Shown in pieces: positions 4,295-36,397 of a DNA stretch of 64,000 bases. The notes beneath the pieces were generated by a model, which saw nothing but the letters and a program-made list of their open reading frames with translations, did not search any database and had not been told where the DNA came from. Position 1 is the first letter of the stretch. Each line of letters starts with the position of its first letter. Position numbers and translations under genes: made by a program. The stretch covers positions 66,817 through 130,816 of the forward strand of contig JAUWAU010000016.1 in assembly GCA_030601885.1 (NCBI GenBank), written 5' to 3'. This DNA comes from Armatimonadota bacterium (GTDB lineage Bacteria; Armatimonadota; Zipacnadia; JAUWAU01).

Positions 4295-4326
4295 GGAATT
4301 CCGGGGACACCATACTTAATTCTTGG
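4295..4326 (+). repeat. J-repeat copy 3, forward orientation
   Basis: Reads GGAATTCCGGGGACACCATACTTAATTCTTGG. It abuts the point where Rhs fragment 2 is truncated. Confidence 0.85.
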
Positions 4327-4379
4327 GTCGTGGCTTCCGCGGGCGGCGAACGCGTGGGATATTCTCTCGGACCGGGTAC

Positions 4380-4838
4380 TCACGGCTCTTCGCCCTCCAA
4401 GAAGACCTTGAGCTCTGTCTTGAGTCGCTCCAGCACGTCTTCCGAGCGAAGGACCAGGTCGGCCATTTTCGTCCACTGCAGCTCAAATGTGTAGGCATGG
4501 CGAAAGACGTGCCTGAACTGCATGTACTTGCCGAGCTGCGCACAGAGATCTCCGGATATGGCGGCTGGACGCTCAGCGAACGGCTTGGCCATCCGCAAGA
4601 GCAGATCAGCGTGCCATCGCTCTCCTGCAGGGAGTGAGGCGTCTATCTCGAGAGCTATTCGCTTGAATATGTTCTCAATGCCGGTATAGAGCGCGTGGAG
4701 AAATGCCGAAAGGGCCGACAGTTCAATGCTGTCCGGCTCCACGCTGCGCACTTTCACCAGCAGAGGCCGGTGGGTCTCAGCCAGACGTTGCAGAAGGGCG
4801 AGTTCAAGATTCACCTTCTCCCCAGTTTCAGGCCACAC
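4380..4838 (-). CDS. hepT: HEPN-domain toxin (HepT-like / nucleotidyltransferase substrate-binding family)
   Basis: 152 aa. It carries the Rx4H HEPN motif in FRHVFRHAY. It overlaps the upstream minimal nucleotidyltransferase gene by 11 nt, the classic MNT/HEPN arrangement. Confidence 0.75.
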   Translation of the reverse strand: MWPETGEKVNLELALLQRLAETHRPLLVKVRSVEPDSIELSALSAFLHALYTGIENIFKRIALEIDASLPAGERWHADLLLRMAKPFAERPAAISGDLCAQLGKYMQFRHVFRHAYTFELQWTKMADLVLRSEDVLERLKTELKVFLEGEEP

Positions 4839-5115
4839 GCCTCAGTTCGCCTTTCTTCTCCAAGTACTCGGTAAACGGATTGCGCTCGTCCAGGTCAATC
4901 AGATCGAAGGGCCTGGAGATGGCGAGAGCAGCCCTGCTCATGGCGTCGAAGAATCGTTCGGGCGGCAGCCCTCGCACAGCGAGGTCGAGGTCGGAGCTTG
5001 GCCCTTGCGCCCCGCGGCTGGCAGAGCCGAACACGAACACCTCCCGGGCACCGGCCTCCCGAAGAATTCCCGCCGCCATCTCGATGTCATGCTGTAGGGT
5101 ATTGACTGTGGTCAT
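4828..5115 (-). CDS. mntA: Minimal nucleotidyltransferase antitoxin (MntA-like)
   Basis: 95 aa. It carries the polymerase-beta-type NTase signature FVFGSASRGAQGPSSDLDLAV (GS...RG...DxD). It is translationally coupled to the HEPN gene. Confidence 0.8.
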   Translation of the reverse strand: MTTVNTLQHDIEMAAGILREAGAREVFVFGSASRGAQGPSSDLDLAVRGLPPERFFDAMSRAALAISRPFDLIDLDERNPFTEYLEKKGELRRVA

Positions 5116-5193
5116 CGCTGCACTCCTGAACGCTGTCTCATTGTATCACATTCTGCACCCACCGTGAATTCGGCGTCAATTCCTGAAATCCGG

Positions 5194-5225
5194 GGAATTC
5201 CGAGGACACCATACTCAATTCTTGC
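5194..5225 (+). repeat. J-repeat copy 4, forward orientation
   Basis: Reads GGAATTCCGAGGACACCATACTCAATTCTTGC, two or three mismatches from copy 3. It lies 79 nt upstream of the mntA start. Confidence 0.8.
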
Positions 5226-5428
5226 TCTGTGCCTTCTTGCGTAGGCCCTTGGACGATTCCGCCGACACAACACTCATTCTCTGCCCCCCAGCAACAACGC
5301 CCCGCCGCTCCGCCACGCTGAGCGTCCGGGCTGGCTGGCCGCGGCCGAGAAGGAGGTGTCAGGTGGTGGCAAGTCCAAGAAGCCCGGCACCGGGATTCGC
5401 ACAAGACGCATGAAGGGAGGAATGAGGC

Positions 5429-6469
5429 ATGCCGGATCGGAAGCCCGGCAAGACGGGCCGTCGCGATTTCCTCAAACGCGTTGGGGCGGGCGCGGTCATC
5501 GGCGCCGCCGGTACGGGGCTCGGCCCCACGGCCGGAGCGGCGCTGGCGACGTCGAAAGCCCCGAGTGGCAAGGAGAACATCGAAGACCGCCGTCTGGCAG
5601 AGACGAGCTCAAAGGAGGCGCCGGCTATGAGAATCGGCGTGAATCTGCTGCTTTGGTCAGCCGCAATGGGGAAAGAATCCCTGGGCCTCATTGAGAAGGT
5701 GGCTCGGTTCGGTTTCGACGGAGTGGAGATCTTCATCGACGAGCCCGCCAACATCGACCGCCGGGCCATCAAGAAAGTGGTGGATGATAACGGGCTGGGC
5801 ATCACGTGCTGCTCCATTGTTGGCCCGGACAGGCACCTGATAAGCGACGATCGGAAGATCCGCCGGAACGCGAGAGATTACCTCAAGGCTGCGGTCGAGG
5901 TCTCCCACGACGTCGGCAGCTCCATCTTCTGCGGCCCGCTGTATGCCGGAGTCGGTGTGCTTGTCGGCCGTCCGCGCACCGAGGAGGAATGGGGCCGGGC
6001 GGTCGAGGGACTGTCGGAGGTGGCCAAGGACGCCGAGGCGGCCGGTGTAACGCTATGCCTGGAGCCCCTCAACCGGTTCGAGACATACTTCGTCAACATC
6101 GTGGAGGACGCGGTGAAACTGGCGAAAGACGTGGACAGTCCCAACGTCAAGGTAATGGGCGATACCTTCCACATGAATATCGAGGAGAAGAACCTCCGTC
6201 AACCCCTCGTTGCGGCCGGGGACCTGCTTCACCATATGCATTGCTGCGGGAACGACCGAGGCACGCCGGGGGCAGGACACGTGGACTGGGACGACGTTTT
6301 TGCAGCCCTCCGCGATGTCGGCTACGATGGGTGGCTGGTGATCGAGTCCTTTGTGCTGGGCAACGAGGCCATTGCCAAAGCCGCCGCCATCTGGCGCGAT
6401 ATCGCCCCCTCTGGGGATGACTTGGCAAGGGACGGCCTCGCGTTTCTCAGGAGGATGTCCGCGGCGTAG
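5429..6469 (+). CDS. TAT-exported sugar phosphate isomerase/epimerase (xylose isomerase-like TIM barrel)
   Basis: A GGGAGGA RBS precedes the start. The twin-arginine signal is GRRDFLKRVGAGAVIGAAG. Family-typical blocks are present (MRIGVNLLLWS, FGFDGVEIF, LCLEPLNRFE, GDTFHMNIEE, HMHCCGNDRG). Confidence 0.8.
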   Translation: MPDRKPGKTGRRDFLKRVGAGAVIGAAGTGLGPTAGAALATSKAPSGKENIEDRRLAETSSKEAPAMRIGVNLLLWSAAMGKESLGLIEKVARFGFDGVEIFIDEPANIDRRAIKKVVDDNGLGITCCSIVGPDRHLISDDRKIRRNARDYLKAAVEVSHDVGSSIFCGPLYAGVGVLVGRPRTEEEWGRAVEGLSEVAKDAEAAGVTLCLEPLNRFETYFVNIVEDAVKLAKDVDSPNVKVMGDTFHMNIEEKNLRQPLVAAGDLLHHMHCCGNDRGTPGAGHVDWDDVFAALRDVGYDGWLVIESFVLGNEAIAKAAAIWRDIAPSGDDLARDGLAFLRRMSAA

Positions 6470-6583: not shown

Positions 6584-9436
6584 ATGATGCGCAGGCAACT
6601 GATTGCCCTTGCCGTGCTGACTGCTTTGTCGATCGCCGAGTCGTCGTTTGGCGTGGCTGCTCAGAGAGGCGAGGCAGAAGCTATCCTCGACCGGATCGGG
6701 ATCACTCGCGGGATTTGCGTCGTGCTCGGCGACAAGGAGTGTGAACTGGCCCTGGACCTCGCCCGGAACAGCGACCTGACGGTGTACCTGCAACTGGCCT
6801 CCGCCAGGGATGTGGAGGCGGCGAGCCGGGCGGCCGATGCTGCCGGGCTCCTTGGAACGCGGATATGGGTGGCAAAGGGCAATTCGACCCGAATCGGCCT
6901 TGCTGAGAACCTCGCCGACGCGCTCGTTGCAGTGGGCGATCCGGCGGGTGTGCCCAAGGCCGAGGTGCTGCGAGTGCTCAGACCCGAGGGGAAAGCTATC
7001 CAGGGGCGAGGAGAATTGGTCAAGCTCTTTCCCCAGGGGGCGGACGACTGGAGCCATCACTATCATGGGCCGGACAACAACCCCCAGTCCGAGGATCGTC
7101 TCGCCGTGGCTCCCTACATCACCCAGTTCATCGCTGAGCCGCGCTACGGACCGGGCCCGCAGGCTGCCGTCGCCTCGGCCGGACGCATCTTCATGGCCTT
7201 CGGGCATGTCGCCTGGCACAAGCGAGAAGAGCCCTGGCTGAACACCCTCGTCGCAATGAACGGGTTTAACGGCACCATTCTCTGGAAGCGACCACTGTCC
7301 CCGGGAATCATGGTCGATCGCAGCGCGATGATCGCGACGCCAACGACCCTCTACCTGGCGGACGACAAGTCGTGCAAGCTCCTCGACGCCGCCACCGGGA
7401 GGCTCACCGACGAGATCGTGGTACCGGCCAACCTCACGGACGGGCCCTTCTGGAAATGGATGGCGCTGGAAGACGGTGTTCTCTACGCGCTGGTGGGAAA
7501 AGCGGAACCCCTGGACCCCGTGGCACGCTGGCGCAGCGTCAGGCATGGCTGGCCGTGGAGCGGCGTATCGGAGGGGTACAACCGGTCTGAGTACACGTGG
7601 GGACTCGGGAAGACTCTCCTGGCGATAGATCCGAAGACGAAAAAGGTCCGTTGGCATCATCAGGAGGCCGTGCCAATTGACAGTCGGACGCTGTGCATGA
7701 AAAGCGGCCGCATCTACTACGGTTCTTTCGGCCAGTACATCGCGTCTCTGGACGCGAAGACCGGCAAGGTGATCTGGAGGAGAACGGCCGAGGATGACCC
7801 GGACGTCTTCAAGGCGATCGGGCCGTACCGCCCCGGCCACGGGTATGTCGCCGGCTGGAAGAGCACCGTGTATGTAAAATGCACCGACGAGGCGCTCTAC
7901 TTCGTGGGGCCGCAGGTGGAGTGGCTGACGGCGCTCTCGGCAGAGGACGGCCGAGTGCTCTGGACGTTCCCCAACAAAGACCTGCACGTGGTCATTCGCG
8001 ATGACGGTCTCTACACTATCGGCGCTCAGAAGAGCGAGGGACACACGAAGAAGCTAGACCCTCTGACCGGACAAGTCCTCGCCAGCTACGAAACACACCG
8101 GCGGGCGTGCACGCGATCCGTGGGCAGCGCCGATGGGATTCTCTTCCGAGCCAGCGGGGGCTCCGTGCGACTCGACTTGCCAACCGGCAAGCCGCAGTGG
8201 ATCTCGCCCATGCGCCCGTCGTGTCACATTGGCGTCCTCGTGGCCGGTGGACACCTCTACTGGGTGCCCTGGGTGTGCGACTGTAACCTCCAGATGTTCG
8301 GCGTGATCTGCTGCGGGCCGGCGGGCGGATTTGAGTTCGACCGAAGGGCCACCCAGCAGCAGCGACTCGAGAGGTCCGTTGACGACCGAACCAAGATCGC
8401 GCAATTCCAGGAGTCACCGGCTGACTGGCTCACCTACCGGGCGAATAGTGCCCGCACCGCCCGCACGCGGGCCGCGATACGCGATGAGGTGAGTCTCCTG
8501 TGGAAGTCTGAGCCAAAGGTGAAGTTCGAGCCCACGGCCCCGGTTGCCGCCGGCGGCATGGTCTTCGTCGGCGGCTCGGACGGTATCGTGCGCGCCCTGG
8601 ATGCGGCCACCGGAGCGCCTCGCTGGCGGGCCTACACGGGTGGCGCCGTGCGATTCCCGCCGTCGATCGCCGGCGGTCGGGCCCTTGTCGGATCCGGCGA
8701 TGGTTGGGTGTATGCTTTCGAAGCGGCCACTGGCAGGATGCTCTGGCGTTTCCGCGCCGCGCCGGTCGAGCGAAGAATACCGGTCTACGGCTCACTGCTG
8801 TCCACGTGGCCTGTCGCGAGCGGAGTGCTGGTCGAGCAAGGTGTGGCCTACTTCGCGGCCGGCATCAACGACTATGACGGCACCCACCTGTATGCCCTCG
8901 ACGTGGCAACCGGCGAGATCAAATGGCAGAACAACACGGCCGGCCACCTCGATGCCTGGTCCCGCAGGGGCATAGCCTGTCAGGGGGAGCTACTGCTGCA
9001 CGATGGCAAGCTGTACCTGGCGGGCGGCACCGCGGTGTCGCCGGGCGCTTTCGACGTCACGAACGGCGAGTGCCTCAACGATCCACCATCGTGGGTCGGC
9101 ACCCAGGCCCGGCGAGGCCGGGAACTGCGCCTTGCCAACGGGCGCGTGGAAGTCAGCGGACAGCCCCTCTACTCGCGAGCGGACTACCCCGTGTACGACA
9201 AGTCTGCGCAGTGGGATGACCCCGTCGTGGAGACGAAGAACGTCAGTCTCCTGTGCCGCCAGCGCGAAGATCCGCCGGGGGGCGTTTGGAGCCTCGTGGC
9301 CCGGGACCCCGCCAATGGCACTGATCTGTGGGAACAGCCGCTGCCGGACGAGCCGGTGCGGTGGGGCATGGCCGTGGATGCCGGTGGGCGCATCATCGTG
9401 ACGCTCCGAAACGGGCAAGTGCTCTGTTTTGGCTAG
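6584..9436 (+). CDS. Secreted PQQ-like (BamB-type) beta-propeller repeat protein with N-terminal degenerate methyltransferase-like domain
   Basis: AAGGAG RBS and a signal peptide (LIALAVLTALSIAESSFG). Propeller blades recur (LYALVGK, VIWRR, VLWTF, APRWRAYTGG, MLWRFRA, IKWQNN, LWEQPL). It is a paralogue of 25466..29053. Confidence 0.75.
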   Translation: MMRRQLIALAVLTALSIAESSFGVAAQRGEAEAILDRIGITRGICVVLGDKECELALDLARNSDLTVYLQLASARDVEAASRAADAAGLLGTRIWVAKGNSTRIGLAENLADALVAVGDPAGVPKAEVLRVLRPEGKAIQGRGELVKLFPQGADDWSHHYHGPDNNPQSEDRLAVAPYITQFIAEPRYGPGPQAAVASAGRIFMAFGHVAWHKREEPWLNTLVAMNGFNGTILWKRPLSPGIMVDRSAMIATPTTLYLADDKSCKLLDAATGRLTDEIVVPANLTDGPFWKWMALEDGVLYALVGKAEPLDPVARWRSVRHGWPWSGVSEGYNRSEYTWGLGKTLLAIDPKTKKVRWHHQEAVPIDSRTLCMKSGRIYYGSFGQYIASLDAKTGKVIWRRTAEDDPDVFKAIGPYRPGHGYVAGWKSTVYVKCTDEALYFVGPQVEWLTALSAEDGRVLWTFPNKDLHVVIRDDGLYTIGAQKSEGHTKKLDPLTGQVLASYETHRRACTRSVGSADGILFRASGGSVRLDLPTGKPQWISPMRPSCHIGVLVAGGHLYWVPWVCDCNLQMFGVICCGPAGGFEFDRRATQQQRLERSVDDRTKIAQFQESPADWLTYRANSARTARTRAAIRDEVSLLWKSEPKVKFEPTAPVAAGGMVFVGGSDGIVRALDAATGAPRWRAYTGGAVRFPPSIAGGRALVGSGDGWVYAFEAATGRMLWRFRAAPVERRIPVYGSLLSTWPVASGVLVEQGVAYFAAGINDYDGTHLYALDVATGEIKWQNNTAGHLDAWSRRGIACQGELLLHDGKLYLAGGTAVSPGAFDVTNGECLNDPPSWVGTQARRGRELRLANGRVEVSGQPLYSRADYPVYDKSAQWDDPVVETKNVSLLCRQREDPPGGVWSLVARDPANGTDLWEQPLPDEPVRWGMAVDAGGRIIVTLRNGQVLCFG

Positions 9437-25080: not shown

Positions 25081-25455
25081 TCGCTCTTCGCGGACTTCGC
25101 CGAGACCTTTCTCGACTACGCTGGGGTGCCCATCCCGAAGGCGATGCGAGGCCGAAGTTTCCGTCCGCTTCTACAGGGCAAGACGCCAGCGGATTGGCGC
25201 AAGTCGTCGTTCTATGCCTACTGGGGCCGCCGAACCAAGCACTACGGAGTCCGAACCGAGAGATATAAGCTGGTGATTTGCCATACCGGTGAGCGCGAAC
25301 TGTATGACCTGAAGACAGATCCACAAGAGCGCAGGAGCGAGATCGGTAACCCCGAGTATGCCGCCGTGGTGAAAGAGTTTGAGGCGGAGCTGAAGAAAGT
25401 GATGGAGGAGATAAGAATCTCACAGGATGTTCTGCCCGGAAACCGAGGAGGATAG
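25081..25455 (+). pseudogene. 3' remnant of a sulfatase gene
   Basis: Only the C-terminal sulfatase region is present (FAETFLDYAGVPIPKAMRGRSFRPLLQG ... HYGVRTERYKLV ... ELYDLKTDPQE). There is no N-terminal catalytic CxPxR part. Upstream codons of the track ORF look non-coding. Confidence 0.65.
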
Positions 25456-25465
25456 GACCAAGACC

Positions 25466-28400
25466 ATGACTCAAAAGGTGCTGATTCGGCGGGCAATCGC
25501 GTGGATGAGGACGCCGGCCACGATCTTGGCGTTGGCTGCGGCGTCTGCGACCATGTCGGCGGCGGACTGGCCGCAGTACCGGGCCGACGCCACCCGGAGT
25601 GGATACGCGCCGGAGACGCTGCCGAGCCAACTCTCCCTCAAGTGGGTTCGCCATGCGAGGCATGCGCCCGATCGGGCATGGGTGGGCCGGAGCCTGGCGC
25701 GGTCACGGATGAAGTTTGACTGGGCGCACAGCGTAGTTGTGGCCGATGGCATCGGTTATTTCGGCAGTTCGACAGATGACAAGCTGTACGCTATCGACGC
25801 CGCCACCGGTGAAGAGAAATGGAGTTTCTTCACCGGCGGGCCCATCCGCCTTGCCCCTGCCGTCTGGAAAGATCGTGTGTTCGTCGTCAGCGATGATGGG
25901 TTTCTGCACTGTCTGTCGGCACTGGATGGCACGGAGCTCTGGAAGGTGCGCGGCGGCCCCGATCCCGATCTGGTGATCGGCAACGGGCGCGTCGTGTCGC
26001 GTTGGGTGGCGCGTGGCGGTCCGGCCGTTCGGGACGGCGTGGTCTACTTCGGCGCGGGCATCTGGCCCACGGATGGGGTCGCCATCTACGCCGTTGATGC
26101 TGAGAGCGGCAAGGTTCTGTGGTGCAATGACAACGCCGGCGCCCTGGAGATCGACCAACCGCACATGGGCGCCTATTCCCGGGGAGGCGTCGCGGCGCAG
26201 GGATACCTGGCGGTTACGAGCGACAAGGTGTTCGTAATGACCGGTCGCTCCATCCCGGCGGCGTTTGACCGGAAGACCGGACGCTTTCTCTACTTCCACC
26301 TGAGTCGGTACGGAGGGAAGACGCCGTGGGGTGTGGGCGGTGGCGATGTGGTAGCGACCGATGATGTCTTCTTCACGGCGGGCTTCGCCTTCGATACCGC
26401 AACGGGCATGCGACATCATCAAGTTGGCAAACGTAACTGGTGGATCCCTTTCGTCAGGGACGGACACCAGTATCACGGCGAATTCCTGGTAGGTGTGCGG
26501 CAAGTTATCGCTGCTACGCCGGATGGGTTCGTCAGGTCGGAGGGCTCGACCGTATACGGCTCCGCCCTCTCCAGGAAGACCTATGCTGTCCGCCGGGAAT
26601 GGGAGACCTCTGTTCATACGCCCCGCCTGGCATCTGTCGGACCGGCGAACAAGGGATACATGGAGAGAATCGACGACGCTCCTCTGGTGGCGGATCAGTG
26701 GTCTGTCGAAACAGACGGTCCGATCCAGGAGCTCATTGTCGCCGGCGGAACCATCGCGCTGGGCTCGGCCAACCGGGTCTTTCTCGTGGACGCAGTATCG
26801 AGGAGAGTCACGTGGTCAACCGAACTCGACAGCGCCGTCTACACATTGGCCGCATCGGACGGCTGCCTGTACGCCAGCACCGGCAAAGGGACCATCTACT
26901 GCTTCGGTGCGCAGGATGTGAACGCGGCTCCGAGAGAGATCGAGCTGAGCTCGAGGGCCTCGCCGTATCCGGACAACAGCCTCGCGCGTAGGGCGGCCCA
27001 GGAGATCATTCGCCAGACGGGCATCACCAGCGGTTACTGTCTGGATCTGGGATGTGGCAATGGTGCGCTGGCCTATGAGCTGGCGAAGCGGACCGATCTT
27101 CACATCATTGGCATAGATGCCAATCCGGCTAACGTCAGGGAAGCGCGGCGCAAACTGGATGCCGCCGGGCTCTACGGGGTGAGCGTGGCCGTCCTGCAAC
27201 GGGCTCTCTCGACCACGTATCTTCCCGACTACTTTGCGAACCTCATCGTCTCCTCATCGGCACTTCTCACGGGCACCGGCGGCTTGCCCGAGGGAGAGAT
27301 CGCCCGCCTCCAGCGCCCTTACGGCGGCACAGTTTGCCTGGGGACGCCGGGGGCCATGACTGTCAACGTGCGCGGCGAACTCGAGGGCGCGGGCAGTTGG
27401 ACTCATCCGCTTGGCGATCCCGGCAACACCATGTGCTCGGGCGATGAGCTCGCCAGAGGCCCGCTGGGGGTCTTGTGGTACAGGGACGAGACCCTCGAGA
27501 CCATTGACCGCCACGGCAAGAACCCGGCGCCGCTGTTCTACAAAGGCGTGCTGCTGCGCGAAGGCATCAACGCCATTGACGGAATCGACGCCTACAACGG
27601 CCGCGTCATGTGGCGCGTTTCTTTGCCAGAGCTGTTGGGCGCCTACCTGGGCGGCTCGGGCGTCGGGGCGACCCAGGTCGCAAACACGTACTGCGTCGCC
27701 GATGACGTCGTCTACGCCCGACAGGGGAGCCACTGCCTACTACTGCACGTCTACACGGGAAAACGTCTGGACAGATTCGAAGCGCCCAAGCATCCGGACG
27801 GACGCAAACACGACTGGACGTATGTCGCTTGTGAGGACGGCATTCTGTACGGCGCGCTCGCCAACGACACGCACATCGTCAAGTCGCAGCACGGAAGCGG
27901 AAACGAGCGCACGCAGGTCCCCATGGACAGGCACTTCACGGAATCCTCCATGGTCTTTGCCATAGACGCGGATACGGGCGAGGTGAAGTGGACGTGGGTT
28001 CCTGAACAGTCGATCCGGAACAATTCCTTCGCCGTCGGGAATGGCTGCATCTTCTTCATCGATCGCCCCGTGGCCGAGATTGACCGAATCCTCCGTGAAG
28101 TCGCCGAGGCGAAGCGCCGCGGAGGGGAGCCCCTGCCGGCCCATCCGCTCGGCAGGTTGTTGGCTCTGGACGGGAACACGGGGGAGTTGCTGTGGGATAG
28201 GAAAGACAATGTTCACGGTACCACGCTCGTTCTGAGCGCCAAACATGACGCGCTCCTCATGTGCTACAACCACGTCGGTCGCGCTCTTGCCTCGGATGGC
28301 TTCAATCAAGGAACCACCTGCTTTCGGGCGTCGGATGGAACGATTCTGTGGGAAACGACGCAGAAGCTGGGCGGGCAGCGTCCCGTGGTCGTCGATCGGA

Positions 28401-29053
28401 CGATGTACAGCCCCCCGGGCGCGTGGGATCTGCTGACGGGAGAGCCGAAGACCGTAATGCGAAATGGTCAAGAGGTGCTCTGGCAAATCAAGGACCGGCG
28501 GATGGGTTGCGGCCCGTTGGCCGGCTCGCAACACCTGCTAATGGGGCGCGCGGGGGCCATGGGATACTACGACCTGGCGTATGATCCCGGGAGATACGAG
28601 TACTTCGGCGGCGCGCGGGCGGGATGTTGGATCAACATGATCGCGGCCGGCGGCATCGTTCTGGCGCCTGACGACAGCCGGGCCTGCCGCTGCGCCTATC
28701 AGAACCAGGCGTCCGTTGCCCTCAAAGAGTATGGGGAACGTCCGCCGAGGGTCACGGTGGCGAGCGAACCGGCGAACTACGCCTATGACATCGCCAGGAG
28801 GTCGTATAGCTTCGTTGGCAAGCTCATCATCGAGATGAGTCATCCCAAGGACGATGTCGAGATACGCTACACACTGGACGATAGCTATCCAACGATGGGA
28901 TCAGCTCTCTACACGGGGCCCATTACATTGACGGAGACAATGCCCGTGCGGGCCTCGGCGTTCAGGAACGGCAGGAAAGTGGCCGTTCGCGACGGCATCA
29001 TCTTCACCAAAGTCCGGAAGCTGGACACGACCACCGGGAAGAAGGGGCAATGA
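25466..29053 (+). CDS. Secreted PQQ-like beta-propeller protein with an internal class I SAM-methyltransferase domain and a C-terminal chitobiase/hexosaminidase-type (Fn3-associated) domain
   Basis: Signal peptide present, followed by propeller blades (ADWPQYRAD, KLYAIDAATGEEKWSF, LHCLSALDGTELWK, VLWCND). The SAM motif I is GYCLDLGCGNGALAYELAKRTDLHIIGID. A second propeller follows. The C-terminal block is IRYTLDDSYPTMGSALYTGPITL. The start could instead be the ATG at 25427. Confidence 0.75.
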   Translation: MTQKVLIRRAIAWMRTPATILALAAASATMSAADWPQYRADATRSGYAPETLPSQLSLKWVRHARHAPDRAWVGRSLARSRMKFDWAHSVVVADGIGYFGSSTDDKLYAIDAATGEEKWSFFTGGPIRLAPAVWKDRVFVVSDDGFLHCLSALDGTELWKVRGGPDPDLVIGNGRVVSRWVARGGPAVRDGVVYFGAGIWPTDGVAIYAVDAESGKVLWCNDNAGALEIDQPHMGAYSRGGVAAQGYLAVTSDKVFVMTGRSIPAAFDRKTGRFLYFHLSRYGGKTPWGVGGGDVVATDDVFFTAGFAFDTATGMRHHQVGKRNWWIPFVRDGHQYHGEFLVGVRQVIAATPDGFVRSEGSTVYGSALSRKTYAVRREWETSVHTPRLASVGPANKGYMERIDDAPLVADQWSVETDGPIQELIVAGGTIALGSANRVFLVDAVSRRVTWSTELDSAVYTLAASDGCLYASTGKGTIYCFGAQDVNAAPREIELSSRASPYPDNSLARRAAQEIIRQTGITSGYCLDLGCGNGALAYELAKRTDLHIIGIDANPANVREARRKLDAAGLYGVSVAVLQRALSTTYLPDYFANLIVSSSALLTGTGGLPEGEIARLQRPYGGTVCLGTPGAMTVNVRGELEGAGSWTHPLGDPGNTMCSGDELARGPLGVLWYRDETLETIDRHGKNPAPLFYKGVLLREGINAIDGIDAYNGRVMWRVSLPELLGAYLGGSGVGATQVANTYCVADDVVYARQGSHCLLLHVYTGKRLDRFEAPKHPDGRKHDWTYVACEDGILYGALANDTHIVKSQHGSGNERTQVPMDRHFTESSMVFAIDADTGEVKWTWVPEQSIRNNSFAVGNGCIFFIDRPVAEIDRILREVAEAKRRGGEPLPAHPLGRLLALDGNTGELLWDRKDNVHGTTLVLSAKHDALLMCYNHVGRALASDGFNQGTTCFRASDGTILWETTQKLGGQRPVVVDRTMYSPPGAWDLLTGEPKTVMRNGQEVLWQIKDRRMGCGPLAGSQHLLMGRAGAMGYYDLAYDPGRYEYFGGARAGCWINMIAAGGIVLAPDDSRACRCAYQNQASVALKEYGERPPRVTVASEPANYAYDIARRSYSFVGKLIIEMSHPKDDVEIRYTLDDSYPTMGSALYTGPITLTETMPVRASAFRNGRKVAVRDGIIFTKVRKLDTTTGKKGQ

Positions 29054-29283: not shown

Positions 29284-30615
29284 TTATCCGGCGGCCATTT
29301 TCGGCTGCAGGCGGCGCGCGGCTGCCCACAGTGCAATGGCAAGCCAAAGCCGCATCTGTGGGGCGTAACGGCGCCAGGAGCGGACGAAGCTCGATTCGAA
29401 CACCCACGTCCACGCCAACGCGGCAGGCAGCGCCAGAAGTGAAGGCAATCCGCCAAGTGCCACCCAAACCTGCCCCCCGCCCGGTGCTGCTACTGCGCTC
29501 CACCATTCCCGCAGCGCCTCCGGGTATTGCATAGCCAGGCACACTACCAGGCCAATGAGGGCCAACTGAGCGACCGCCTCCCCCGCCACCCAGAGCACCG
29601 CCCACCACAACCTCCCCCAGGCGCTCCAGCCCTGCGTGGCTCGATTCATGGTCTCGGGCGCCACCAGCGAGTCGATGCGGTCGAGCAGATCCTCCCACGC
29701 ATCCGCATCGTCGAGCCGCACCAGACCCAACGCATCGGTCAGCAGCCACCAGCCATCGGTCCTCGTCCCGACAAGCAGGCACCAGGCTGCAGTGAACTGC
29801 AGGAAAAGCGCCGCGGCCAGGGCGGCGGGCCAGGCGGTGCCCACATAGATGGCATACGAAACGACCGCAGCCACAAGCTGAAGGTACACGCCACCAGCGT
29901 CCACGATACACCGCCGCGCGCGCGGGAGCCTCCAGGCTTCAGTGACATCCGCACTCCAGGATGCCGGCAGGAGCCCGGTCACATCGCCATGAGTACCGGA
30001 GAATCTTCGGCACGCTGCGAGATGACCTAACTCGTGCAAGAAGACGAGCAACGGCGCCAGGAGGCTCAAGACCAGGACGTCGAGCCACGAAAGCTGGTGC
30101 AGCGCGCGGGCTACTTGGGGAAGCCCATCGAACACGACCATCCGGACTAGCATGGCCAGTACGGCGACCAGTACAGCAGCCGCCACCGGCCGTGCGAATA
30201 GGACGCCCAGCAACGGTGTAGCCACCCCGAGCTGGCCCGCCTTGACAGTGACCCGCCAGGCACCCGCCGTTTTCTCGACAAAACGCGGAGGCACTGGCTC
30301 CATGTCCGGTTCGGCGTCGTCGTCCTGGGCGCGGCGGCCGGCCAGGAGGCCTCGTGGCCCCAGCCTATTCTCCAGAGCCCACTCAACCTCCCACCGCGTG
30401 ACGTGGCGGCGCCAGAGGCGGGAGACGGCGCGCGCAATTCGCTCCTCAGACCGCATCCCATCGATGCAGGAGAGGAGTTGATAGAGGGACTCGGAGATGC
30501 GGAAGAACCTGGCGTCCGGTAGCCGGACCAGGTAGGCCGGCTGGGGCAGATCCACGTCGAAGGGGCCGATCCAAACGCCCTCGGCGAGGCGTGGCTTGGC
30601 GGCGCTCGCGGGCAT
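29284..30615 (-). CDS. PqqD/RRE-like domain fused to an M50-like multi-pass membrane zinc metalloprotease
   Basis: The N-terminal block is FFRISESLYQLLSCIDGMRSEERIARAV (PqqD-like). HELGH sits within a TM segment. TDGWWLLTDALG resembles the second M50-type motif (xDGxxxLxD). At least six hydrophobic segments are present. The ATG lies 3 nt after the stop of 30619..32718. Confidence 0.65.
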   Translation of the reverse strand: MPASAAKPRLAEGVWIGPFDVDLPQPAYLVRLPDARFFRISESLYQLLSCIDGMRSEERIARAVSRLWRRHVTRWEVEWALENRLGPRGLLAGRRAQDDDAEPDMEPVPPRFVEKTAGAWRVTVKAGQLGVATPLLGVLFARPVAAAVLVAVLAMLVRMVVFDGLPQVARALHQLSWLDVLVLSLLAPLLVFLHELGHLAACRRFSGTHGDVTGLLPASWSADVTEAWRLPRARRCIVDAGGVYLQLVAAVVSYAIYVGTAWPAALAAALFLQFTAAWCLLVGTRTDGWWLLTDALGLVRLDDADAWEDLLDRIDSLVAPETMNRATQGWSAWGRLWWAVLWVAGEAVAQLALIGLVVCLAMQYPEALREWWSAVAAPGGGQVWVALGGLPSLLALPAALAWTWVFESSFVRSWRRYAPQMRLWLAIALWAAARRLQPKMAAG

Positions 30616-30618
30616 GGC

Positions 30619-32718
30619 TCAACTCTCTTGGAGGGCCGTGAGCAGCGCCCGGAGGCAGAAGGCGGTGGTCACCGTTGCGCTCTTGAAGGTCAACACGTGT
30701 GCAGACGTCGTCGCCTGCCGCTCCAACCGGAGGCGCGATAGGTCCACTTTCACGAAGGGACTGGCGGGCCATGCGCCGCTGCTGCGCTGGCGGCCGAGGA
30801 GATATGACAGCCCCCGCCTCCCGGCCGTGTCGAGCTCCGGTTGGCCCTCTTGCAGATCACACGCCAGTACACCGAAGGCCGTCTCCAGAGGCGTGCTTTC
30901 CGGTTCTCCCCATCCGCCATCCTGGTGCTGCGCCTGCAGCACGTACTGCAGCCCGCGCGCCAGCGGCTCGCAGTCGGGCTCGACATCAGCCAGAAGCCGA
31001 CAGCACAGCCACGTGGGATAGGTTCGACCCCAATACCAGTGGCCAGACCAACTGCCGTCCGAGTGCTGGACGCTCGCCAGGTAGCTTACACCGGCTCGCA
31101 GAACCTCGCCGAAGGCCTGCTTATCGTACAAGCAAACCCCGAACAGCGCATTGGCAACGACGTCCAGATCCGGCTCTTCGCCCCATGCCTCGTACATTCG
31201 TGCCTTGGCCCGCAGGGCGTCCTCATCGTCGGGGTCGGCCAGCCACGTGTCCACGGCACCATTTGAGCGCACATTGTGCTCGGCCAGCAGGGCCACGACA
31301 TCGCCGCACAGCTCGGCCATTCGCTCCGGCGCCGCACTGGCCAAGGCAGACAGGACGGCGCCCAGCGTGTCGGCATCCGCCGGCAGTCCGCTCACGCCCG
31401 GGATGTACGTCCATCCTCGTTGCGGGCCTTCGAGGCGGCTGCGTGCCAGGTAATCAACCTCGGCCTGCAACACTTCGTCAGGCACCATCAGACCGACGCG
31501 TCGGCAGTGCGCGAGGGCCTCCAGGATAAGGGCTCTGGCGAACACGTCGCCCGTGCGAAGGTGTCCACCCTTCGCCAGGGGCTCCGGTTGGGGGAAAAAC
31601 ACGGGGTGCCGTGCCTCGACAAAGCCCCGCTGCTGCTCCTGGACCAGCAGCCTCAGAGCCGACTCAGTCGCCTCGCGCGCCCGCTCTGTCGTCACTTCAT
31701 CCGATGCCGGTCTGGGGAGGGGCTCTGCCTCAATCCGGGCTCGCTCTTTTGTTGTAGCGCGGAGCAGTTCAAGGTCCTGCTGCAGGTTGGCTGAGCGAGT
31801 TCGTGCGCGCTGGACGTACCCCAGCCAGCCTGGACAGCCCTGCTCAGCGGCCAATTCGTGCGCGTGGTCAAATGCTGCGATGGACTCGCCCAGCGCCTCC
31901 TCAGCCAGCCCCGAGAAGTACATGAATTTGCCCACCAGCTCGGCGTCTGGCTTCTCGTCGCCCATGATCTGGTTGGCTAGGCCGCTTTCGATGAGGGTCC
32001 GGGTCAGGATGTAGGAGTAGTTCCCCCGCTCATAGTCGAACTTCCAATCGCAAAGATCGTCGTGCAATTGCAGGCCCATGGCGTGGTGGTCTTGGGAGGC
32101 GGTCAGCGGCTCAATCTTGTCGGGCTCGTGACCGAGCAGCCCCAGCGCCGTGGGGACCAGCTTGGCACATGCCTGCTTCCCCGTAGCCGAGCGCCAAAGC
32201 TCCTCTCCCGTGTAGGGGATCACTTGGCCGTCGTGGCGGCTGCGCTCCGCGACCATGACACCGGCCTGCTCCAGCCAGAAGGCGTCAAAGCGGAGCCAGA
32301 AGTCCGAGCTGGCGTCGAACAACTCCTGAAACGCGCGCGAGGCTTGCTGCAGACGATAGTGGCAACTCAGATAGCTGGCCAGGATGAACGGCCGCGCGTG
32401 TCCAAGCTGTGCGTCCACCAACTTGTCAAGCAAGATGGCGTGCTCAGCGACGAGCTGCGCACCAACCGCCAGTGTGCGCGCGTCCTCTGCCGTAACCCGC
32501 GGGAAGCCAGACAGAAACAGATAGACGTAATCATGGAACGAGCAATAGGCGGCGATGCTGTCAACCCACGTCCCGTCCTTCTCAATCACGCCGTCCATCG
32601 CTTCCCACTCGATGTAGGGCGATTGCTTCAGTGACTCATAGAAGCTGCCCACCACCTGCGTCGCGAGCGCCCAGACTTGCTCCACCTCGTGTGCCATGTG
32701 AGAATCGGGCTCCTGCAT
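30619..32718 (-). CDS. Fusion protein: N-terminal polyprenyl-synthase-like (class I isoprenoid fold) domain plus C-terminal QW-repeat prenyltransferase/terpene-cyclase-like alpha/alpha barrel
   Basis: N-terminal half: GLQLHDDLCDWKFD sits at about residue 215-228, where a second Asp-rich motif is expected. ATGKQACAKL is KT-like. A degenerate first motif, AILLDKLVD, sits at about residue 95-102. C-terminal half: four QW-like repeats are present (YLARSRLEGPQRGW, YLASVQHSDGSW, YVLQAQHQDGGW, YLLGRQRSSGAW), plus LPADADTLG. The ATG at 32718 is preceded by GAGGAG; the track start at 32724 is a TTG. Confidence 0.6.
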   Translation of the reverse strand: MQEPDSHMAHEVEQVWALATQVVGSFYESLKQSPYIEWEAMDGVIEKDGTWVDSIAAYCSFHDYVYLFLSGFPRVTAEDARTLAVGAQLVAEHAILLDKLVDAQLGHARPFILASYLSCHYRLQQASRAFQELFDASSDFWLRFDAFWLEQAGVMVAERSRHDGQVIPYTGEELWRSATGKQACAKLVPTALGLLGHEPDKIEPLTASQDHHAMGLQLHDDLCDWKFDYERGNYSYILTRTLIESGLANQIMGDEKPDAELVGKFMYFSGLAEEALGESIAAFDHAHELAAEQGCPGWLGYVQRARTRSANLQQDLELLRATTKERARIEAEPLPRPASDEVTTERAREATESALRLLVQEQQRGFVEARHPVFFPQPEPLAKGGHLRTGDVFARALILEALAHCRRVGLMVPDEVLQAEVDYLARSRLEGPQRGWTYIPGVSGLPADADTLGAVLSALASAAPERMAELCGDVVALLAEHNVRSNGAVDTWLADPDDEDALRAKARMYEAWGEEPDLDVVANALFGVCLYDKQAFGEVLRAGVSYLASVQHSDGSWSGHWYWGRTYPTWLCCRLLADVEPDCEPLARGLQYVLQAQHQDGGWGEPESTPLETAFGVLACDLQEGQPELDTAGRRGLSYLLGRQRSSGAWPASPFVKVDLSRLRLERQATTSAHVLTFKSATVTTAFCLRALLTALQES

Positions 32719-33045
32719 GCACAAACTCCTCTCTCGCCAGAGGGCGGAATGCGGTTTCGTTCAGTCTAGGCGCACTGACAGCGCTGCTGGCTCAGGGGCG
32801 GCGCCCGCTTCCGGCCCCAGCTACTTTGTCCGCACCGCGCCGGCCCGCCATGCGCGAACGCTGTGCTCAAGGCGGCACCGACATCGTAGATGCCTGCCCA
32901 TTGTTGGCACAGGCCATTGGCCGGCCGCCTATAGGGTCTACGTTCGGCAATGAACGGGATCCCGCGTGCGCGCGTTGGGAGGAGCGAGGGCTGTGGGGTT
33001 TTGTATCAGGAAGGCTCCATCCGGCCCCCGACGATGTGCAACTCA

Positions 33046-33176
33046 GAGCCTATCCCAAAACCCCTCGACTTGTCATGCTGAGCCTGGCGAAGCATCTCGC
33101 AATAGCCTCCGGGACGAGATTCTTCGCGTTGCTCAGAATGACATTTCTTCGAGCGGCTGGTTTTAGGATAGGCTCT
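33046..33176. repeat. Nested palindromic intergenic element
   Basis: Outer arms are GAGCCTATCCCAAAACC and GGTTTTAGGATAGGCTC. Inner arms are TGTCATGCTGAGC and GCTCAGAATGACA. Each pair has one mismatch. It lies in the spacer between the precursor peptide gene and the fusion gene. Confidence 0.8.
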
Positions 33177-33512
33177 AAATCACGGGACAGCTCCAGCACT
33201 GCCTTCCCAGCCCTCGAGAGCGATTCCCTAACCATCCCGTGTCCGCTTGCCGCTGCTGCCAAGCCCGAAACGGCCGGCTCTCGCGGCCCCGGGTAGTCGC
33301 AATGACACCCTTTCGCGGCTGCCGCCGGCCGGGGCTTGGTCCACGTTGTGCACCAGCGAAACGTCGCCCTGCCCGTGAGCACGTGTGCCCGTGCGTGCAT
33401 GAGCCCGTTCCCCAGAGCGTCACACCGCCTCGCGTCCACGGATAGCACCCCACGGAGCCCTGACCCTCCGCCTGCCCTCGCTGTGGTGCAGAGGGTCCAA
33501 TTCCCACAGCGG

Positions 33513-33704
33513 CTACTCCGGCTCTGGCTTCGGCATTTCTTTCTTGCCCCAGTCGCCGCACGCTTTGAAATTGTCGCACACGCACCCCCAAGCCTCCCCA
33601 CGAACGTCCAGCTCCTCCATGGCCAGCCGTTCCTCAAGCTCGTCTATGGACACCGCAGCGAACAACTCGGTGTTCAATGACTCGATTTGCTTACCAGGGC
33701 TCAT
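33513..33704 (-). CDS. Candidate RiPP precursor peptide (63 aa)
   Basis: The sequence is MSPGKQIESLNTELFAAVSIDELEERLAMEELDVRGEAWGCVCDNFKACGDWGKKEMPKPEPE. The ATG at 33704 follows a GGAGGA RBS (33711..33716) by 6 nt. It lies 97 nt downstream of the rSAM stop. It is hidden in the C-terminus of the 172-aa track ORF, whose upstream part overlaps the rSAM gene out of frame. Confidence 0.6.
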   Translation of the reverse strand: MSPGKQIESLNTELFAAVSIDELEERLAMEELDVRGEAWGCVCDNFKACGDWGKKEMPKPEPE

Positions 33705-33801
33705 GCTGTGTCCTCCTTGTGGAACCGCCACCCCGCCTCCGTGGGCTGCTGGATGCGACCTTTTCCAGGGCCCACACGGAGCCGAACGGTTCTGCTGTTC
33801 C

Positions 33802-35208
33802 CTATGCTGCCGCCGTAGATGAAAGCTGTTGCGCCGACTTGTCACTGTTGCGATCCAGCCACTCGACGTACGCCAGCGGCGCCACTCGTTGGAAGAGCTC
33901 GGGAAAGTCAGCGCAGTGCGGCTCGTACAGGTCGCCGGTTTCCCAAAAGGCGCGCTGCGCGCAGCCGCCTCCGCAAAGCAGGGCGTAGGGACATTTCCGA
34001 CACTGTGGTATGTTCGCCACCGTCCGCGCACGCCATCGCTCGACCGCCTCGTCGTCCAGCTCTAGATCCGGCACATACCTGCCCAGTTTGCCCTCCGGCG
34101 TCCGCACCGCTTCCCAGCATGCATACACATCGCCGGATGGGTCGAACAGATACATGGCTCTATTGGCGCCGCAGAAGGACGGCTGCAGGCGCGGAAGGCC
34201 CGTCTGCCGCAGCAGGCCAAACACGGTTCTGCGTAAGCCGAAGTCTGTACGCAGACACGAGAGTTCGGGATGGCTGGCCTGCAATCGCTGAAGGCCCTGC
34301 ATCATCTCGACCGGAGAAAGAGTTTGCCGAGCAGTCGATGGGGCATACACCACGTGGCAGTACGGGTGGAAGTTTTCGTGTGCCGCCCATCCCTGCTCCC
34401 GATAGAAGCGGGCCAGCTCCGGTATCAGGCTCAGATTGCTGCGGTCCACGTTCGTCCGCAGGCTCACGTCCACGCCGGCTTGAAGCGCGAGGGCGATGTT
34501 GTCGCTGATAGCAGCGAAGGTGCCGCGGCCGTCAGGCCCAATGCGGCGCTGGTCGTGGATCGGCTGGGGCCCGTCCAGGGTGATTTGGATCTCCTCGATC
34601 TTGCCCGCCCCCAGCAAGTGGCGGTAGTGTGCCAACCCTACGCCATTAGTAGTGGCGTGCAAGGCATAGCCGGCCTCAGTGCTCCTCTGGACCATGTACT
34701 CCACTATCTCCAGATTCCGGGGCATCAGCGGCTCGCCGCCATACAGCGTGATTGGCGCCCGCTGCTGGTCCTCGGGCTGCAGCTTCTCGATGGCCCGGAA
34801 CGCAGCGTCCACCGTGGCCTCATCCATGTGCGTCTCGCCACGCTCGGCGTCACGCCCGTCACGCCCGGCCTGAATGCAGTAGGGGCAGCGCAACTGACAG
34901 TCGTAGGTCGGAATCAGGTGAAATGTGGTGTACCGCCGATCCCGCCGATGAATCGCATCGGCAATCCGGCACATCAAGTCCCGTTCCTCTTCGGGGGTCT
35001 TGTCCGTGAGATACCCCCGCTGACGAAGCTGCGCCGCCGTTTGGGGCAGAATGTCTTCCGGCGCATGGGCGCAGCCATCCGCTGCCTCTCGCAGGAACGC
35101 TGCCACCTCACTAGCGACAACATCCACCGCACCCGAATAGCCGTGCACCAGAAGAACGCGACCCGATCCGGGCAAATCCGCCATCATCGTGTAGTCGCTT
35201 GTCCGCAT
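33802..35208 (-). CDS. Radical SAM / SPASM-domain peptide-modifying enzyme with N-terminal RRE-like extension
   Basis: CQLRCPYC (CX3CX2C) sits about 104 aa from the favoured start, MRTSDYTMM. The full 7-Cys SPASM pattern is present: C-x12-G-x4-C (CGANRAMYLFDPSGDVYAC), CX2CX5CX3C (CRKCPYALLCGGGC), then PHC. The track ORF starts 108 nt further upstream. Confidence 0.85.
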   Translation of the reverse strand: MRTSDYTMMADLPGSGRVLLVHGYSGAVDVVASEVAAFLREAADGCAHAPEDILPQTAAQLRQRGYLTDKTPEEERDLMCRIADAIHRRDRRYTTFHLIPTYDCQLRCPYCIQAGRDGRDAERGETHMDEATVDAAFRAIEKLQPEDQQRAPITLYGGEPLMPRNLEIVEYMVQRSTEAGYALHATTNGVGLAHYRHLLGAGKIEEIQITLDGPQPIHDQRRIGPDGRGTFAAISDNIALALQAGVDVSLRTNVDRSNLSLIPELARFYREQGWAAHENFHPYCHVVYAPSTARQTLSPVEMMQGLQRLQASHPELSCLRTDFGLRRTVFGLLRQTGLPRLQPSFCGANRAMYLFDPSGDVYACWEAVRTPEGKLGRYVPDLELDDEAVERWRARTVANIPQCRKCPYALLCGGGCAQRAFWETGDLYEPHCADFPELFQRVAPLAYVEWLDRNSDKSAQQLSSTAAA

Positions 35209-35318
35209 GTGCACCACCGGGCGTTGACATCTCCCAACGGCCAAACGCCAAGCCGGGGCAGCTTTGTCTCTGCTGGCTCGTCCCACCGCGCCCAGCCCGT
35301 TGAGGTAACCAGGCACGT

Positions 35319-35870
35319 CTATGCGTCGATCCGGCCCATTAGAGCCTCGCTGAATTGAAACTGCTGTGTCTCGACTGCACGGTTGTCGAGCGCGGACAGG
35401 CTGGACCTCACACCCCTGGTCTGGCTCATGCTGCGGGACATGCTGGGGTCCTTGACAACCATTATGGCCGTGTACATGGGGGCTCCTTCCGTGCCCACCA
35501 CCAGCTTGTAGATGGCTGCGCGCTGGATGCCCGCCTGTTTGCCGTACTGCGCAAACGCCTGCTGCAAGTCCGCCTCAAGCTGGGCCTCCTGCCCCGCTTT
35601 TGGCTTCCAGTACTGAGCCATGATAACGGGGCTGGCACGAAGCTGTGCAATGGTAGGCGCGTTCGGCATCACCCGTTCGACGCCCGCAGCCCGTGTGGAC
35701 GGTGTCCGCGTCCGACCCAGCGGGCCCCGCCGCGTTCGCAGTTGTGCGGAGGCGCGCTTGGGAAGAATCAGCGCACCCAGACCGCCCAGCAGCGATCCGG
35801 CTAAGGCGCCCAGTCGTATGAGCGCCCGGCGTCGGGCACTGCCTGCCTTCGTCTTACGGTCCTCTGGCAT
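35319..35870 (-). CDS. Hypothetical exported small alpha+beta protein (ABM/Dabb-like?)
   Basis: The N-terminus is TAT-like (SARRRALIRLGALAGSLLGG). The C-terminal ~100 aa (VIMAQYWKPKAGQEAQLEADLQQAFAQYGKQAGIQRAAIYKLVVG...AIMVVKDP) resembles a ferredoxin-like monooxygenase/stress-barrel fold. It lies directly upstream of the rSAM gene on the same strand. Confidence 0.45.
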   Translation of the reverse strand: MPEDRKTKAGSARRRALIRLGALAGSLLGGLGALILPKRASAQLRTRRGPLGRTRTPSTRAAGVERVMPNAPTIAQLRASPVIMAQYWKPKAGQEAQLEADLQQAFAQYGKQAGIQRAAIYKLVVGTEGAPMYTAIMVVKDPSMSRSMSQTRGVRSSLSALDNRAVETQQFQFSEALMGRIDA

Positions 35871-36397
35871 CTCTCAATCCTCCTTGTGCTGGACTCGCTA
35901 GCACGACTGCATTTCAGACTAATTCGGCTTTCTTCTCGGCCGAGTCGTCACCTCCTCCGTTTAGGGCCATATGCACACCCTTGCCGGACTCGCCGACCGC
36001 CGCACAGCGGCGCTGTATGCCATGGGCATGGCTGTTAGGGTGAATTGTGAGCAGTCTAACAAAGGGGGTATTGTATGTCAACCGCCGCCGGTTAGCGCGG
36101 TGGGAACGGCAGTTGACCGGCGACGACGGGCAGCGATGGCGTTAGTCTCCCACCGGAGCTTTGTCCGACTTTTCCCGCCCACGCCAGGATCCAGTTCCGG
36201 CACGCCCATCTCAGTGGAATGCGTGCGTTTCGTCGCGTCACGGTCGTCCTCGCCTCTTCGAGGGGCAGGGCGCGGAGTACAACCTGATGCTGACCTTCGG
36301 CCCGGCAGTCTCGCTGGTGCACTGAGGCAGCTTGCTCGGGCAAAGGACAATCAGCGGCGCTCGCGGAACGACGCCCGGGGGAGGTGCGGCGCACACC

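Follow-up and report, generated by a model that had tools for sequence, protein, structure and literature searches.

In the 64,000-nucleotide stretch of an Armatimonadota contig (JAUWAU010000016.1) that we analyzed, hereafter the window, the minus strand carries a 63-codon open reading frame (ORF) that is probably the structural "A" gene, encoding the precursor peptide, of a cluster for a peptide that is ribosomally synthesized and then post-translationally modified (RiPP). The cluster pairs a radical S-adenosylmethionine (rSAM) enzyme with a terpene enzyme, and we propose that the precursor is cross-linked and that a tryptophan in it is prenylated and the prenyl group cyclized. Its five genes span positions 29284-35870 of the window, all on the minus strand. 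As far as sequence can tell, the system would be a combination of two known RiPP chemistries in a precursor family that has no curated model. Only tentatively, and with less than even confidence, do we suggest that the family may constitute an undescribed RiPP class, with a leader of the pattern I-x-SLN…ELE-x-RL…RGE and a core of the pattern W-(T)GCxC…W, with rSAM-dependent cross-links at aromatic-x-Cys units and a cyclized polyprenyl group on the invariant Trp, and with members in several bacterial phyla and possibly in a methanogenic archaeon.

The precursor gene occupies 33513..33704 on the minus strand and encodes 63 amino acids plus a stop codon (MSPGKQIESLNTELFAAVSIDELEERLAMEELDVRGEAWGCVCDNFKACGDWGKKEMPKPEPE). 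Direct reading of the sequence places a Shine-Dalgarno element, GGAGGA, at 33711..33716 on the minus strand; in the direction of translation it runs from 33716 to 33711 and is followed by a 6-nt spacer (33710-33705) and the ATG (33704-33702), in the context AAGGAGGA-CACAGC-ATG (longer reading, ACAAGGAGGACACAGCATGAGCCCT), just as a preliminary description of this DNA had reported, and the TAG stop codon lies at 33515-33513. The same stop closes a longer ORF of 172 aa with a GTG start (33513..34031), whose final 63 residues are identical to the peptide. The preliminary description held that this longer ORF overlaps the rSAM gene for most of its length and that only its last 63 codons are intergenic; the rSAM ORF in fact ends at 33802, the overlap is 230 nt (~77 of 172 codons, 44%), and ~96 codons, stop included, lie beyond the rSAM stop. 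Nor does automated annotation miss the gene, as had been expected: gene callers have marked the 63-aa ORF on each of the public contigs examined, as they have its homologs. Taken by itself the ORF is not significant, because 115 ORFs of 40 aa or more occur in 12 kb of this G+C-rich DNA; it is homology that supplies the significance, and judged by comparison with related sequences the ORF is a genuine, conserved precursor gene.

The family surfaced only through exhaustive phmmer searches and through six-frame searches of loci fetched by way of the rSAM gene. A word-indexed search of 5.8 billion proteins returned a 97%-identical twin as its sole match. The phmmer search of 1.84 billion representative proteins recovered 10 further clusters of small homologs (E 2.8e-6 to 5.6e-4) and a 97%-identical homolog; these proteins are 55-92 aa long (for example, MSEEKKIRSLNKTILSDMSIEELESRLQMEELDIRGEMWTGCGCES…W). 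We set aside two stronger phmmer matches, the repetitive eukaryotic proteins P0124 and P0125, as artefacts of composition. Searches of six-frame translations with tblastn and hidden Markov models (HMMs) located related small ORFs beside the rSAM gene in loci L004 (labeled Methanotrichaceae), L016 (labeled Melioribacteraceae), L006, L085, L088, L122, and others, and in more than 15 loci the small ORF adjoins the rSAM homolog on the same strand. The profile of the 18-member family has a single matching place within the window, and small ORFs beside homologous rSAM genes match it at E 1e-13 to 3e-29. Pfam and NCBIfam contain no match to the 63-aa peptide.

A multiple sequence alignment of the 18 members reveals five invariant residues (L10, N11, R26, L27, and W39) and an E24 that is at least 90% conserved, and the consensus reads I-x-SLN-x3-L-x2-LSIEELE-x-RL-x-MEELD-x-RGE-x-W-T-G-C-G-C…W. 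Within the family the leader varies as (S/P)I(E/D)ELE-x-RL-x-MEELD-x-RGE, and the invariant Trp precedes a (T)GCxC motif and a Cys-rich core that varies between members, the C-terminal residue usually being Trp. In the window peptide the leader (residues 1-38; 33591..33704, minus strand) contains I-x-SLN at residues 7-11 and SIDELEERLAMEELDVRGE at residues 19-37. The predicted core delimited from the family alignment (WGCVCDNFKACGDW, residues 39-52; 33549..33590, minus strand) contains the invariant Trp39, a CxC, a third Cys, and Trp52, the position at which most homologs end; the exact leader/core boundary is one that we infer. The remaining C-terminal tail, GKKEMPKPEPE (residues 53-63; 33516..33548, minus strand), is absent from other family members; it is lineage-specific and weakly constrained and may be a dispensable follower. 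Beyond the (T)GCxC motif, the family has no conserved position for an Asp, Asn, or Gly acceptor.

Several patterns of variation are those generally looked for in a RiPP precursor. The leader averages 52% pairwise identity and the part after it 36%, and in locus L164 five precursor paralogs are called and as many as seven can be detected, which share the leader motifs and have divergent cores. Compared with the ~98.5%-identical relatives L001 and L002, codons 1-56 carry no substitutions, whereas the flanking DNA differs by ~2%; the three nucleotide differences in the ORF all fall in codons 57 and 63, and with only 3 differences in 192 nt a dN/dS-type test on these close relatives has little power. 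The window gene is thus a co-oriented ORF adjacent to a maturase gene, in a family with a conserved leader, a variable core, and paralogous copies. The preliminary description had proposed a RiPP precursor composed of an acidic leader and a short Cys-rich core for the adjacent rSAM enzyme, and had named as a check the presence of a conserved small ORF at related rSAM loci; such an ORF is present there, with the ELE-x-RL leader and the C-x-C, and the conserved family supports the proposal. The leader motif together with the invariant W-(T)GCxC signature offers genome miners a search handle that is in no curated HMM at present.

The gene adjacent to the precursor gene (33802..35208, minus strand) encodes a 468-aa radical SAM/SPASM peptide maturase with an N-terminal domain resembling the RiPP recognition element (RRE), as assigned with Pfam, NCBIfam, and an AlphaFold2 (AF2) model; its start at 35208 was set after P0002. 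The protein matches the Pfam models Radical_SAM and Fer4_12 and the NCBIfam SPASM model (55.9 bits against a cutoff of 27), and its invariant residues include the CX3CX2C motif (C104, C108, and C111) and seven SPASM cysteines (C346, C364, C403, C406, C412, C416, and C432). The AF2 model, built from a 30-sequence alignment, has a predicted local distance difference test (pLDDT) score of 89.8 and shows an N-terminal beta3-alpha3 domain typical of an RRE-like element, which we predict to be leader-binding. The best Foldseek match is CteB (5WHY/5WGG; E 6e-19, TM 0.62-0.69), which aligns over the full length, including the CteB RRE, followed by anSME, TigE, SuiB, and ChlB; CteB is also the closest solved sequence. 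The best family matches are maturases of Cys-rich peptides or thioethers, namely TIGR04463, CefB, and PapB, the first two of which we take to be uncharacterized NCBIfam families. The core of the window peptide has three Cys. We posit that the RRE of this enzyme would bind the precursor leader and that the enzyme would cross-link the core cysteines, most likely through thioethers of the sactipeptide or ranthipeptide type.

It is also conceivable, though in our view unlikely, that the peptide is a genuine precursor on which the rSAM enzyme forms C–C cyclophane-type or other radical links at aromatic-x-Cys (omega-x-C) units, for example at W39-G-C41. Such links would suit the precursors of related loci that have the rSAM gene and no fusion enzyme (rSAM-only loci), because their cores are composed of repeated aromatic-x-Cys units, F-x-C repeats among them (precursor positions in parentheses): FICGTFVCSSFSKCSSFGC in L122 (2119-2319), FVCDTFTCTTFTGTCTAFGC in L089 (7498-7737), YFTCGGTFNCSGTYSC in L087 (7566-7790), and EFTCNVY in L007 (7528-7725), with further precursors of this kind in L010 (7532-7729), L013 (7523-7735), and L086 (7542-7754). 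The cores of L006, L085, and L009, which contain at most one Cys and lie beside an orthologous rSAM gene, point the same way, as do the match of the window enzyme to the cyclophane-forming YhhB model (63.7 bits) and its structural resemblance to SuiB. However, the best sequence and structure matches of the enzyme are to the thioether or Cys-rich maturases TIGR04463, CefB, PapB, and CteB, and no core feature is as consistent as Cys within the sub-family to which the window peptide belongs, which argues for thioether formation as the preferred reading.

The repeated units of the rSAM-only cores suggest that this rSAM clade recognizes the aromatic-x-Cys unit. Among these precursors, a subgroup from Acidobacteriota/Thermoanaerobaculia has the C-terminal sequence ACTEFTCNVYAPPPPPxG. 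In L006, tandem precursors (7782-8015 and 8080-8238) with the leader ITIDELEDRLEMQLL and a Cys-free core are encoded beside an orthologous rSAM enzyme and an HExxH protease; because these Cys-free cores adjoin an orthologous rSAM gene, the clade would not be restricted to Cys chemistry.

The next large gene (30619..32718, minus strand) encodes a 699-aa fusion enzyme, which we refer to as PC for prenyltransferase-cyclase. Its N-terminal ~330 aa resemble a trans-isoprenyl-diphosphate synthase, or trans-IDS, and its C-terminal part is a class II terpene cyclase domain; the ATG at 32718 agrees with the 699-aa P0122, and the fusion enzymes of the family are ~700 aa long. The C domain matches 8PAK (E 2.7e-31), squalene-hopene cyclase (1e-28), and MstE (6e-7), and scores 54.7 bits with Pfam SQHop_cyclase_C against a cutoff of 26.1. 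The acid motif DxD(D/S/T) is recognizable: LPADADTLG in the window aligns with TPADADSTA of 8PAK, and the family motif is LP(P/A)DADDLA, with DxDD in 5 of 7 fusion homologs and DADS in the solved relative 8PAK. A class II cyclase domain with an acid motif, as expected of PC-type enzymes, is therefore present. For the N domain, a profile of eight homologs has trans-polyprenyl synthases as all of its top four PDB matches, the best of which, 4LOB, reaches a marginal E of 0.011 and aligns over GK…(F/L)Q-x-x-DDxxD and the first Asp-rich region. Invariant residues of this domain are D91, D95, K174, K179, Q210, D213, D214, and D217, in the pattern D91xxxD95 and Q210-x-x-D213-D214-x-x-D217. Pfam polyprenyl_synt gives one match, at E 0.002, among the 8 fusion-enzyme members, and no curated family in Pfam or NCBIfam, including the ComQ and polyprenyl models, matches the N domain of the window enzyme.

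Published enzymes give these two domains a plausible joint role. Bifunctional prenyltransferase-cyclase maturases of RiPPs were reported by Hubrich et al. (Chem 2024), as described in sections 2.3 and 2.4 of a 2026 review (PMC13290415). By the account given there, NctPC joins an ABBA-type P domain to an MstE-like C domain, and ChrPC has a trans-IDS-like P domain that uses C10-C20 donors to prenylate an internal Trp, along with a C domain that cyclizes the prenyl group. The same sections state that all characterized trans-IDS-like peptide prenyltransferases (ComQ, PalQ, and ChrPC) target Trp and share a Gln just before the second Asp-rich motif; in PalQ systems the acceptor is a conserved C-terminal Trp (PMC10853753). 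We hypothesize that the N domain of the window enzyme would transfer a C10-C20 prenyl group from a prenyl diphosphate onto Trp, with Trp39 the prime candidate and Trp52 an alternative acceptor because most homologs end in Trp, and that the C domain would cyclize the prenyl chain by protonation through the DxD(T) motif. The remark in the preliminary description that Trp is a potential prenylation site was apt, given that Trp39 is invariant in the 18 aligned members, that the next large gene encodes this prenyl-synthase-like/class II terpene-cyclase fusion, and that, according to the cited sections of the review (PMC13290415, citing Hubrich 2024), the sole characterized enzyme of such architecture prenylates Trp.

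The same modifications could also yield a prenylated quorum-sensing pheromone like ComX or PalX instead of an antimicrobial, a product that we consider rather improbable. Pheromone-type peptides are made by ComQ and PalQ, both trans-IDS-like enzymes that prenylate Trp, the cluster of PalX includes a histidine kinase and has a conserved C-terminal Trp (PMC10853753), and in the present family most members end in Trp and a histidine kinase gene follows the cluster of L164. The window cluster, however, has no histidine kinase or response regulator, its fusion enzyme has no match to the ComQ model, and multiple copies with hypervariable cores, as in L164, are a trait more typical of RiPPs that act as antimicrobials or generate diversity.

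The association of the fusion enzyme with the precursor is supported by synteny. Homologs of the peptide, the rSAM enzyme, and PC occur together in the window, L004, L016, L088, L164, L165, L167/168, and L169, and JGI contig P0131 has the peptide and PC only; the nine independent loci are those with enough contig, and each has one to seven precursor copies. In the conserved loci the fusion-enzyme gene is often only 14-175 nt from its upstream neighbor, and the HExxH membrane protein follows the fusion enzyme wherever the contig reaches that far. A Trp at the leader/core junction, followed by a Cys within one to three residues, is present in 9/9 loci with the fusion enzyme versus 0/7 related rSAM-only loci with several kb of flanking sequence (L122, L089, L087, L007, L010, L013, and L086), where the junction position is Phe or is absent. 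The Trp acceptor expected in a PC-type system is accordingly found in the family as W39, invariant in the 18 sequences.

These observations bear on the idea, which we regard as improbable, that the peptide is a ranthipeptide- or sactipeptide-like precursor for the rSAM enzyme only and that the 699-aa terpene enzyme is a neighbor acting on free isoprenoids. Many rSAM homologs do occur with a related precursor and an HExxH protease and without the fusion enzyme (L122, L089, L087, L006, and L091), and in the window the peptide and fusion-enzyme genes are separated by a gap of ~790 nt with a mobile-element insertion. Against this, nine independent loci keep the fusion gene in synteny with the peptide, the short gaps given above being frequent, the junction Trp tracks the fusion enzyme exactly, and published P-C fusions modify Trp residues of RiPPs according to the review sections cited (PMC13290415). 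We therefore favor a role of the fusion enzyme in maturation of the peptide. The remaining explanation, that the 63-codon frame is open by chance in intergenic DNA rich in G+C or that the 172-aa ORF is the true product, is effectively refuted, for although spurious ORFs are as abundant as noted above, conservation across distant lineages extends to the 63-aa frame together with its start region and context, the 55-92-aa homologs have N-termini within a few residues of ATG 33704, the Shine-Dalgarno is strong and optimally spaced, and the homologs have nothing equivalent to the upstream 109 codons of the 172-aa ORF, which overlap the rSAM gene or adjoin it.

The gap between the peptide and fusion-enzyme genes contains a 134-nt element (33044-33177) of which the window has one copy. 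It has 18-nt terminal inverted repeats (33045-33062/33159-33176) that are 94% complementary and an internal palindrome (GTCATTCTGAGC…GCTCAGCATGAC), and because it is absent from the ~98.5%-identical L001 and L002 we interpret it as an insertion polymorphism resembling a miniature inverted-repeat transposable element.

Three loci merit separate description. L164 (GCA_012974705.1, JABAHP010005478.1; 1600-11400) is an expanded cluster with two rSAM/SPASM genes, the fusion enzyme, the HExxH protein, and a flavoenzyme resembling geranylgeranyl reductase (30 bits with GGR_cat, cutoff 27), and the histidine kinase gene mentioned above comes after it. L004 (DATMZB010000029.1, Methanotrichaceae archaeon) has the peptide, the rSAM enzyme, and the fusion enzyme on one contig; its archaeal assignment is weak because the contig is only 3.5 kb. 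L084 encodes a precursor (4220-4435) with a double-glycine leader and a GWGCNAK core, followed by a gene (4637-5779) for a 380-aa protein that has no match in Pfam or PDB and that might be another kind of Trp-modifying enzyme.

The last gene of the cluster (29284..30615, minus strand) encodes a 443-aa polytopic membrane protein with an HELGH motif, a putative leader peptidase whose best NCBIfam match is the daptide protease, an intramembrane HExxH metalloprotease (E 3.9e-16; 59 bits against a cutoff of 300). HExxH homologs follow the PC or rSAM gene in L016, L165, L167, L122, L006, and L091, and the window protein probably acts as the leader peptidase. The first gene (35319..35870, minus strand) encodes a 183-aa accessory protein with a Tat-like N-terminal signal (RRRALIRLGALAG) and a C-terminal ~100 aa resembling the ABM/dimeric alpha-beta-barrel fold. 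ABM-like proteins of 107-183 aa head the cluster in seven loci (window 35319-35870, minus strand; L164 1104-1580; L167 3011-3448; L169 565-1008; L170 195-689; L171 504-890; and L004 25-348) and were not seen in all loci; some copies have a signal or Tat-like N-terminus. The L167 copy has a weak match to Pfam ABM (E 1.3e-4; 22.5 bits against a cutoff of 23.1), and the window protein has no curated family match in Pfam or NCBIfam.

Upstream of the first cluster gene, a candidate sigma-70-like promoter (36053..36081, minus strand; TTGACA-17-TAGACT with a TG extension) is a consensus match only, at 10/12 positions, and two such sites were found versus 0.5 expected. Rfam and terminator scans of the intergenic regions gave no matches. 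A G+C-rich hairpin of ~10 bp without a U-tract lies 16 nt past the peptide stop (33462-33497, minus strand), and we do not claim an attenuator because the folding energy of this region is not better than that of shuffled sequence (z = -0.45). On the plus strand, 25427-29053 encodes a 1208-aa protein with PQQ/BamB-like beta-propeller repeats and a central SAM-methyltransferase domain, whose best named match, a weak one, is to ApyS, a methyltransferase of RiPPs (37.5 bits, cutoff 400); the 3' end of this gene overlaps the predicted start of an opposite-strand ORF, and the gene converges on the protease gene.

Taken together with the steps proposed above for the rSAM and fusion enzymes, the pathway would conclude with the HExxH membrane protease cutting off the leader, perhaps with removal of the tail GKKEMPKPEPE as well, and the end product would be a cross-linked peptide carrying a cyclic terpenoid. 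Several points weigh against this reading. Comparison establishes the gene, its family, and the conserved five-gene context, and every enzymatic step is one that we infer. The rSAM enzyme scores far below every curated family cutoff (TIGR04463, 125 of 525 bits; CefB, 114 of 600; PapB, 103 of 340; SCIFF, 68 of 425), and thioether formation is not secure across the clade because the cores beside the orthologous rSAM genes of L006, L085, and L009 have no Cys or one. For the fusion enzyme, the prenyltransferase assignment of the N domain comes from marginal scores plus motif agreement, the acid motif of the C domain is DADT in the window, not the canonical DxDD, and DAEN in L165, and the AF2 model, which had a three-sequence alignment, has a pLDDT of 44 and is unusable. 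Finally, no prenyl-diphosphate synthase gene adjoins the cluster in the window.

The first report of terpene-cyclized ribosomal peptides dates only from 2024, and very few have been characterized. If our proposal is correct, terpene cyclization coupled to rSAM cross-linking would produce a compact, doubly constrained lipopeptide scaffold from a 63-codon gene. The hypervariable cores, with up to seven precursors in one locus, provide natural variation with which to probe what substrates a Trp prenyltransferase-cyclase and a new rSAM clade will tolerate. Full-text literature searches gave no description of a RiPP cluster with an rSAM enzyme, a squalene-cyclase-type enzyme, and this precursor, the primary ChrPC paper being outside the comparison.

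Each component of the cluster has relatives in known systems. The rSAM enzyme shares the RRE, radical SAM, and SPASM arrangement with CteB (5WGG/5WHY), PapB, TIGR04463 (rSAM_vs_C_rich), and CefB (Cys-every-fifth), and Cys-rich cores are common to those systems and the window cluster. However, the window enzyme is only 18% identical to CteB, reaches 103-125 bits with TIGR04463, CefB, and PapB against curated cutoffs of 340-600, and serves a different leader family, and the clusters of these maturases are without a prenyltransferase-cyclase, unlike the window cluster. The 443-aa protein and the daptide protease share the HExxH core and topology, but the score of 59 bits is far from the cutoff of 300, and the aminotransferase, dehydrogenase, and methyltransferase set of daptide systems is absent from the window cluster. 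The C-terminal ~350 aa of the fusion enzyme align end to end with 8PAK, and the two have in common a (L/T)PADAD(T/S) acid motif and QW-type repeats; in contrast, MstE (6SBB) and 8PAK/8PAJ are free-standing monodomain class II cyclases with small-molecule meroterpenoid or polyprenyl substrates, whereas in the window the domain belongs to a peptide cluster and forms one protein with a prenyltransferase-like domain.

As with ComQ and PalQ, the expectation is that a trans-IDS-like enzyme, with a conserved Gln ahead of its second Asp-rich motif, prenylates Trp, and many members of the window family end in Trp like PalX. ComQ and PalQ, however, stand alone at ~300 aa and lack a cyclase domain, no rSAM enzyme belongs to their clusters, and their leaders differ (NHLP-type in PalX); the ComQ model match and the kinase or regulator that mark a ComQ/ComX system are absent from the window cluster. 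The closest published precedent would be the ChrPC-type prenyltransferase-cyclase, a likeness drawn from its description in the review and not from its sequence. On that description, ChrPC and the window enzyme appear to have the same domain order, a trans-IDS-like P domain and then a class II MstE-like C domain; Asp-rich and Gln motifs are present in the window enzyme, and its precursors have an invariant internal Trp, as in the ChrPC acceptor. Beyond ChrPC as reviewed, the chr cluster being available to us by description only, the window cluster appears to add a CteB-like rSAM/SPASM enzyme, a (T)GCxC Cys-rich core, an HExxH protease, and an ABM-like protein.

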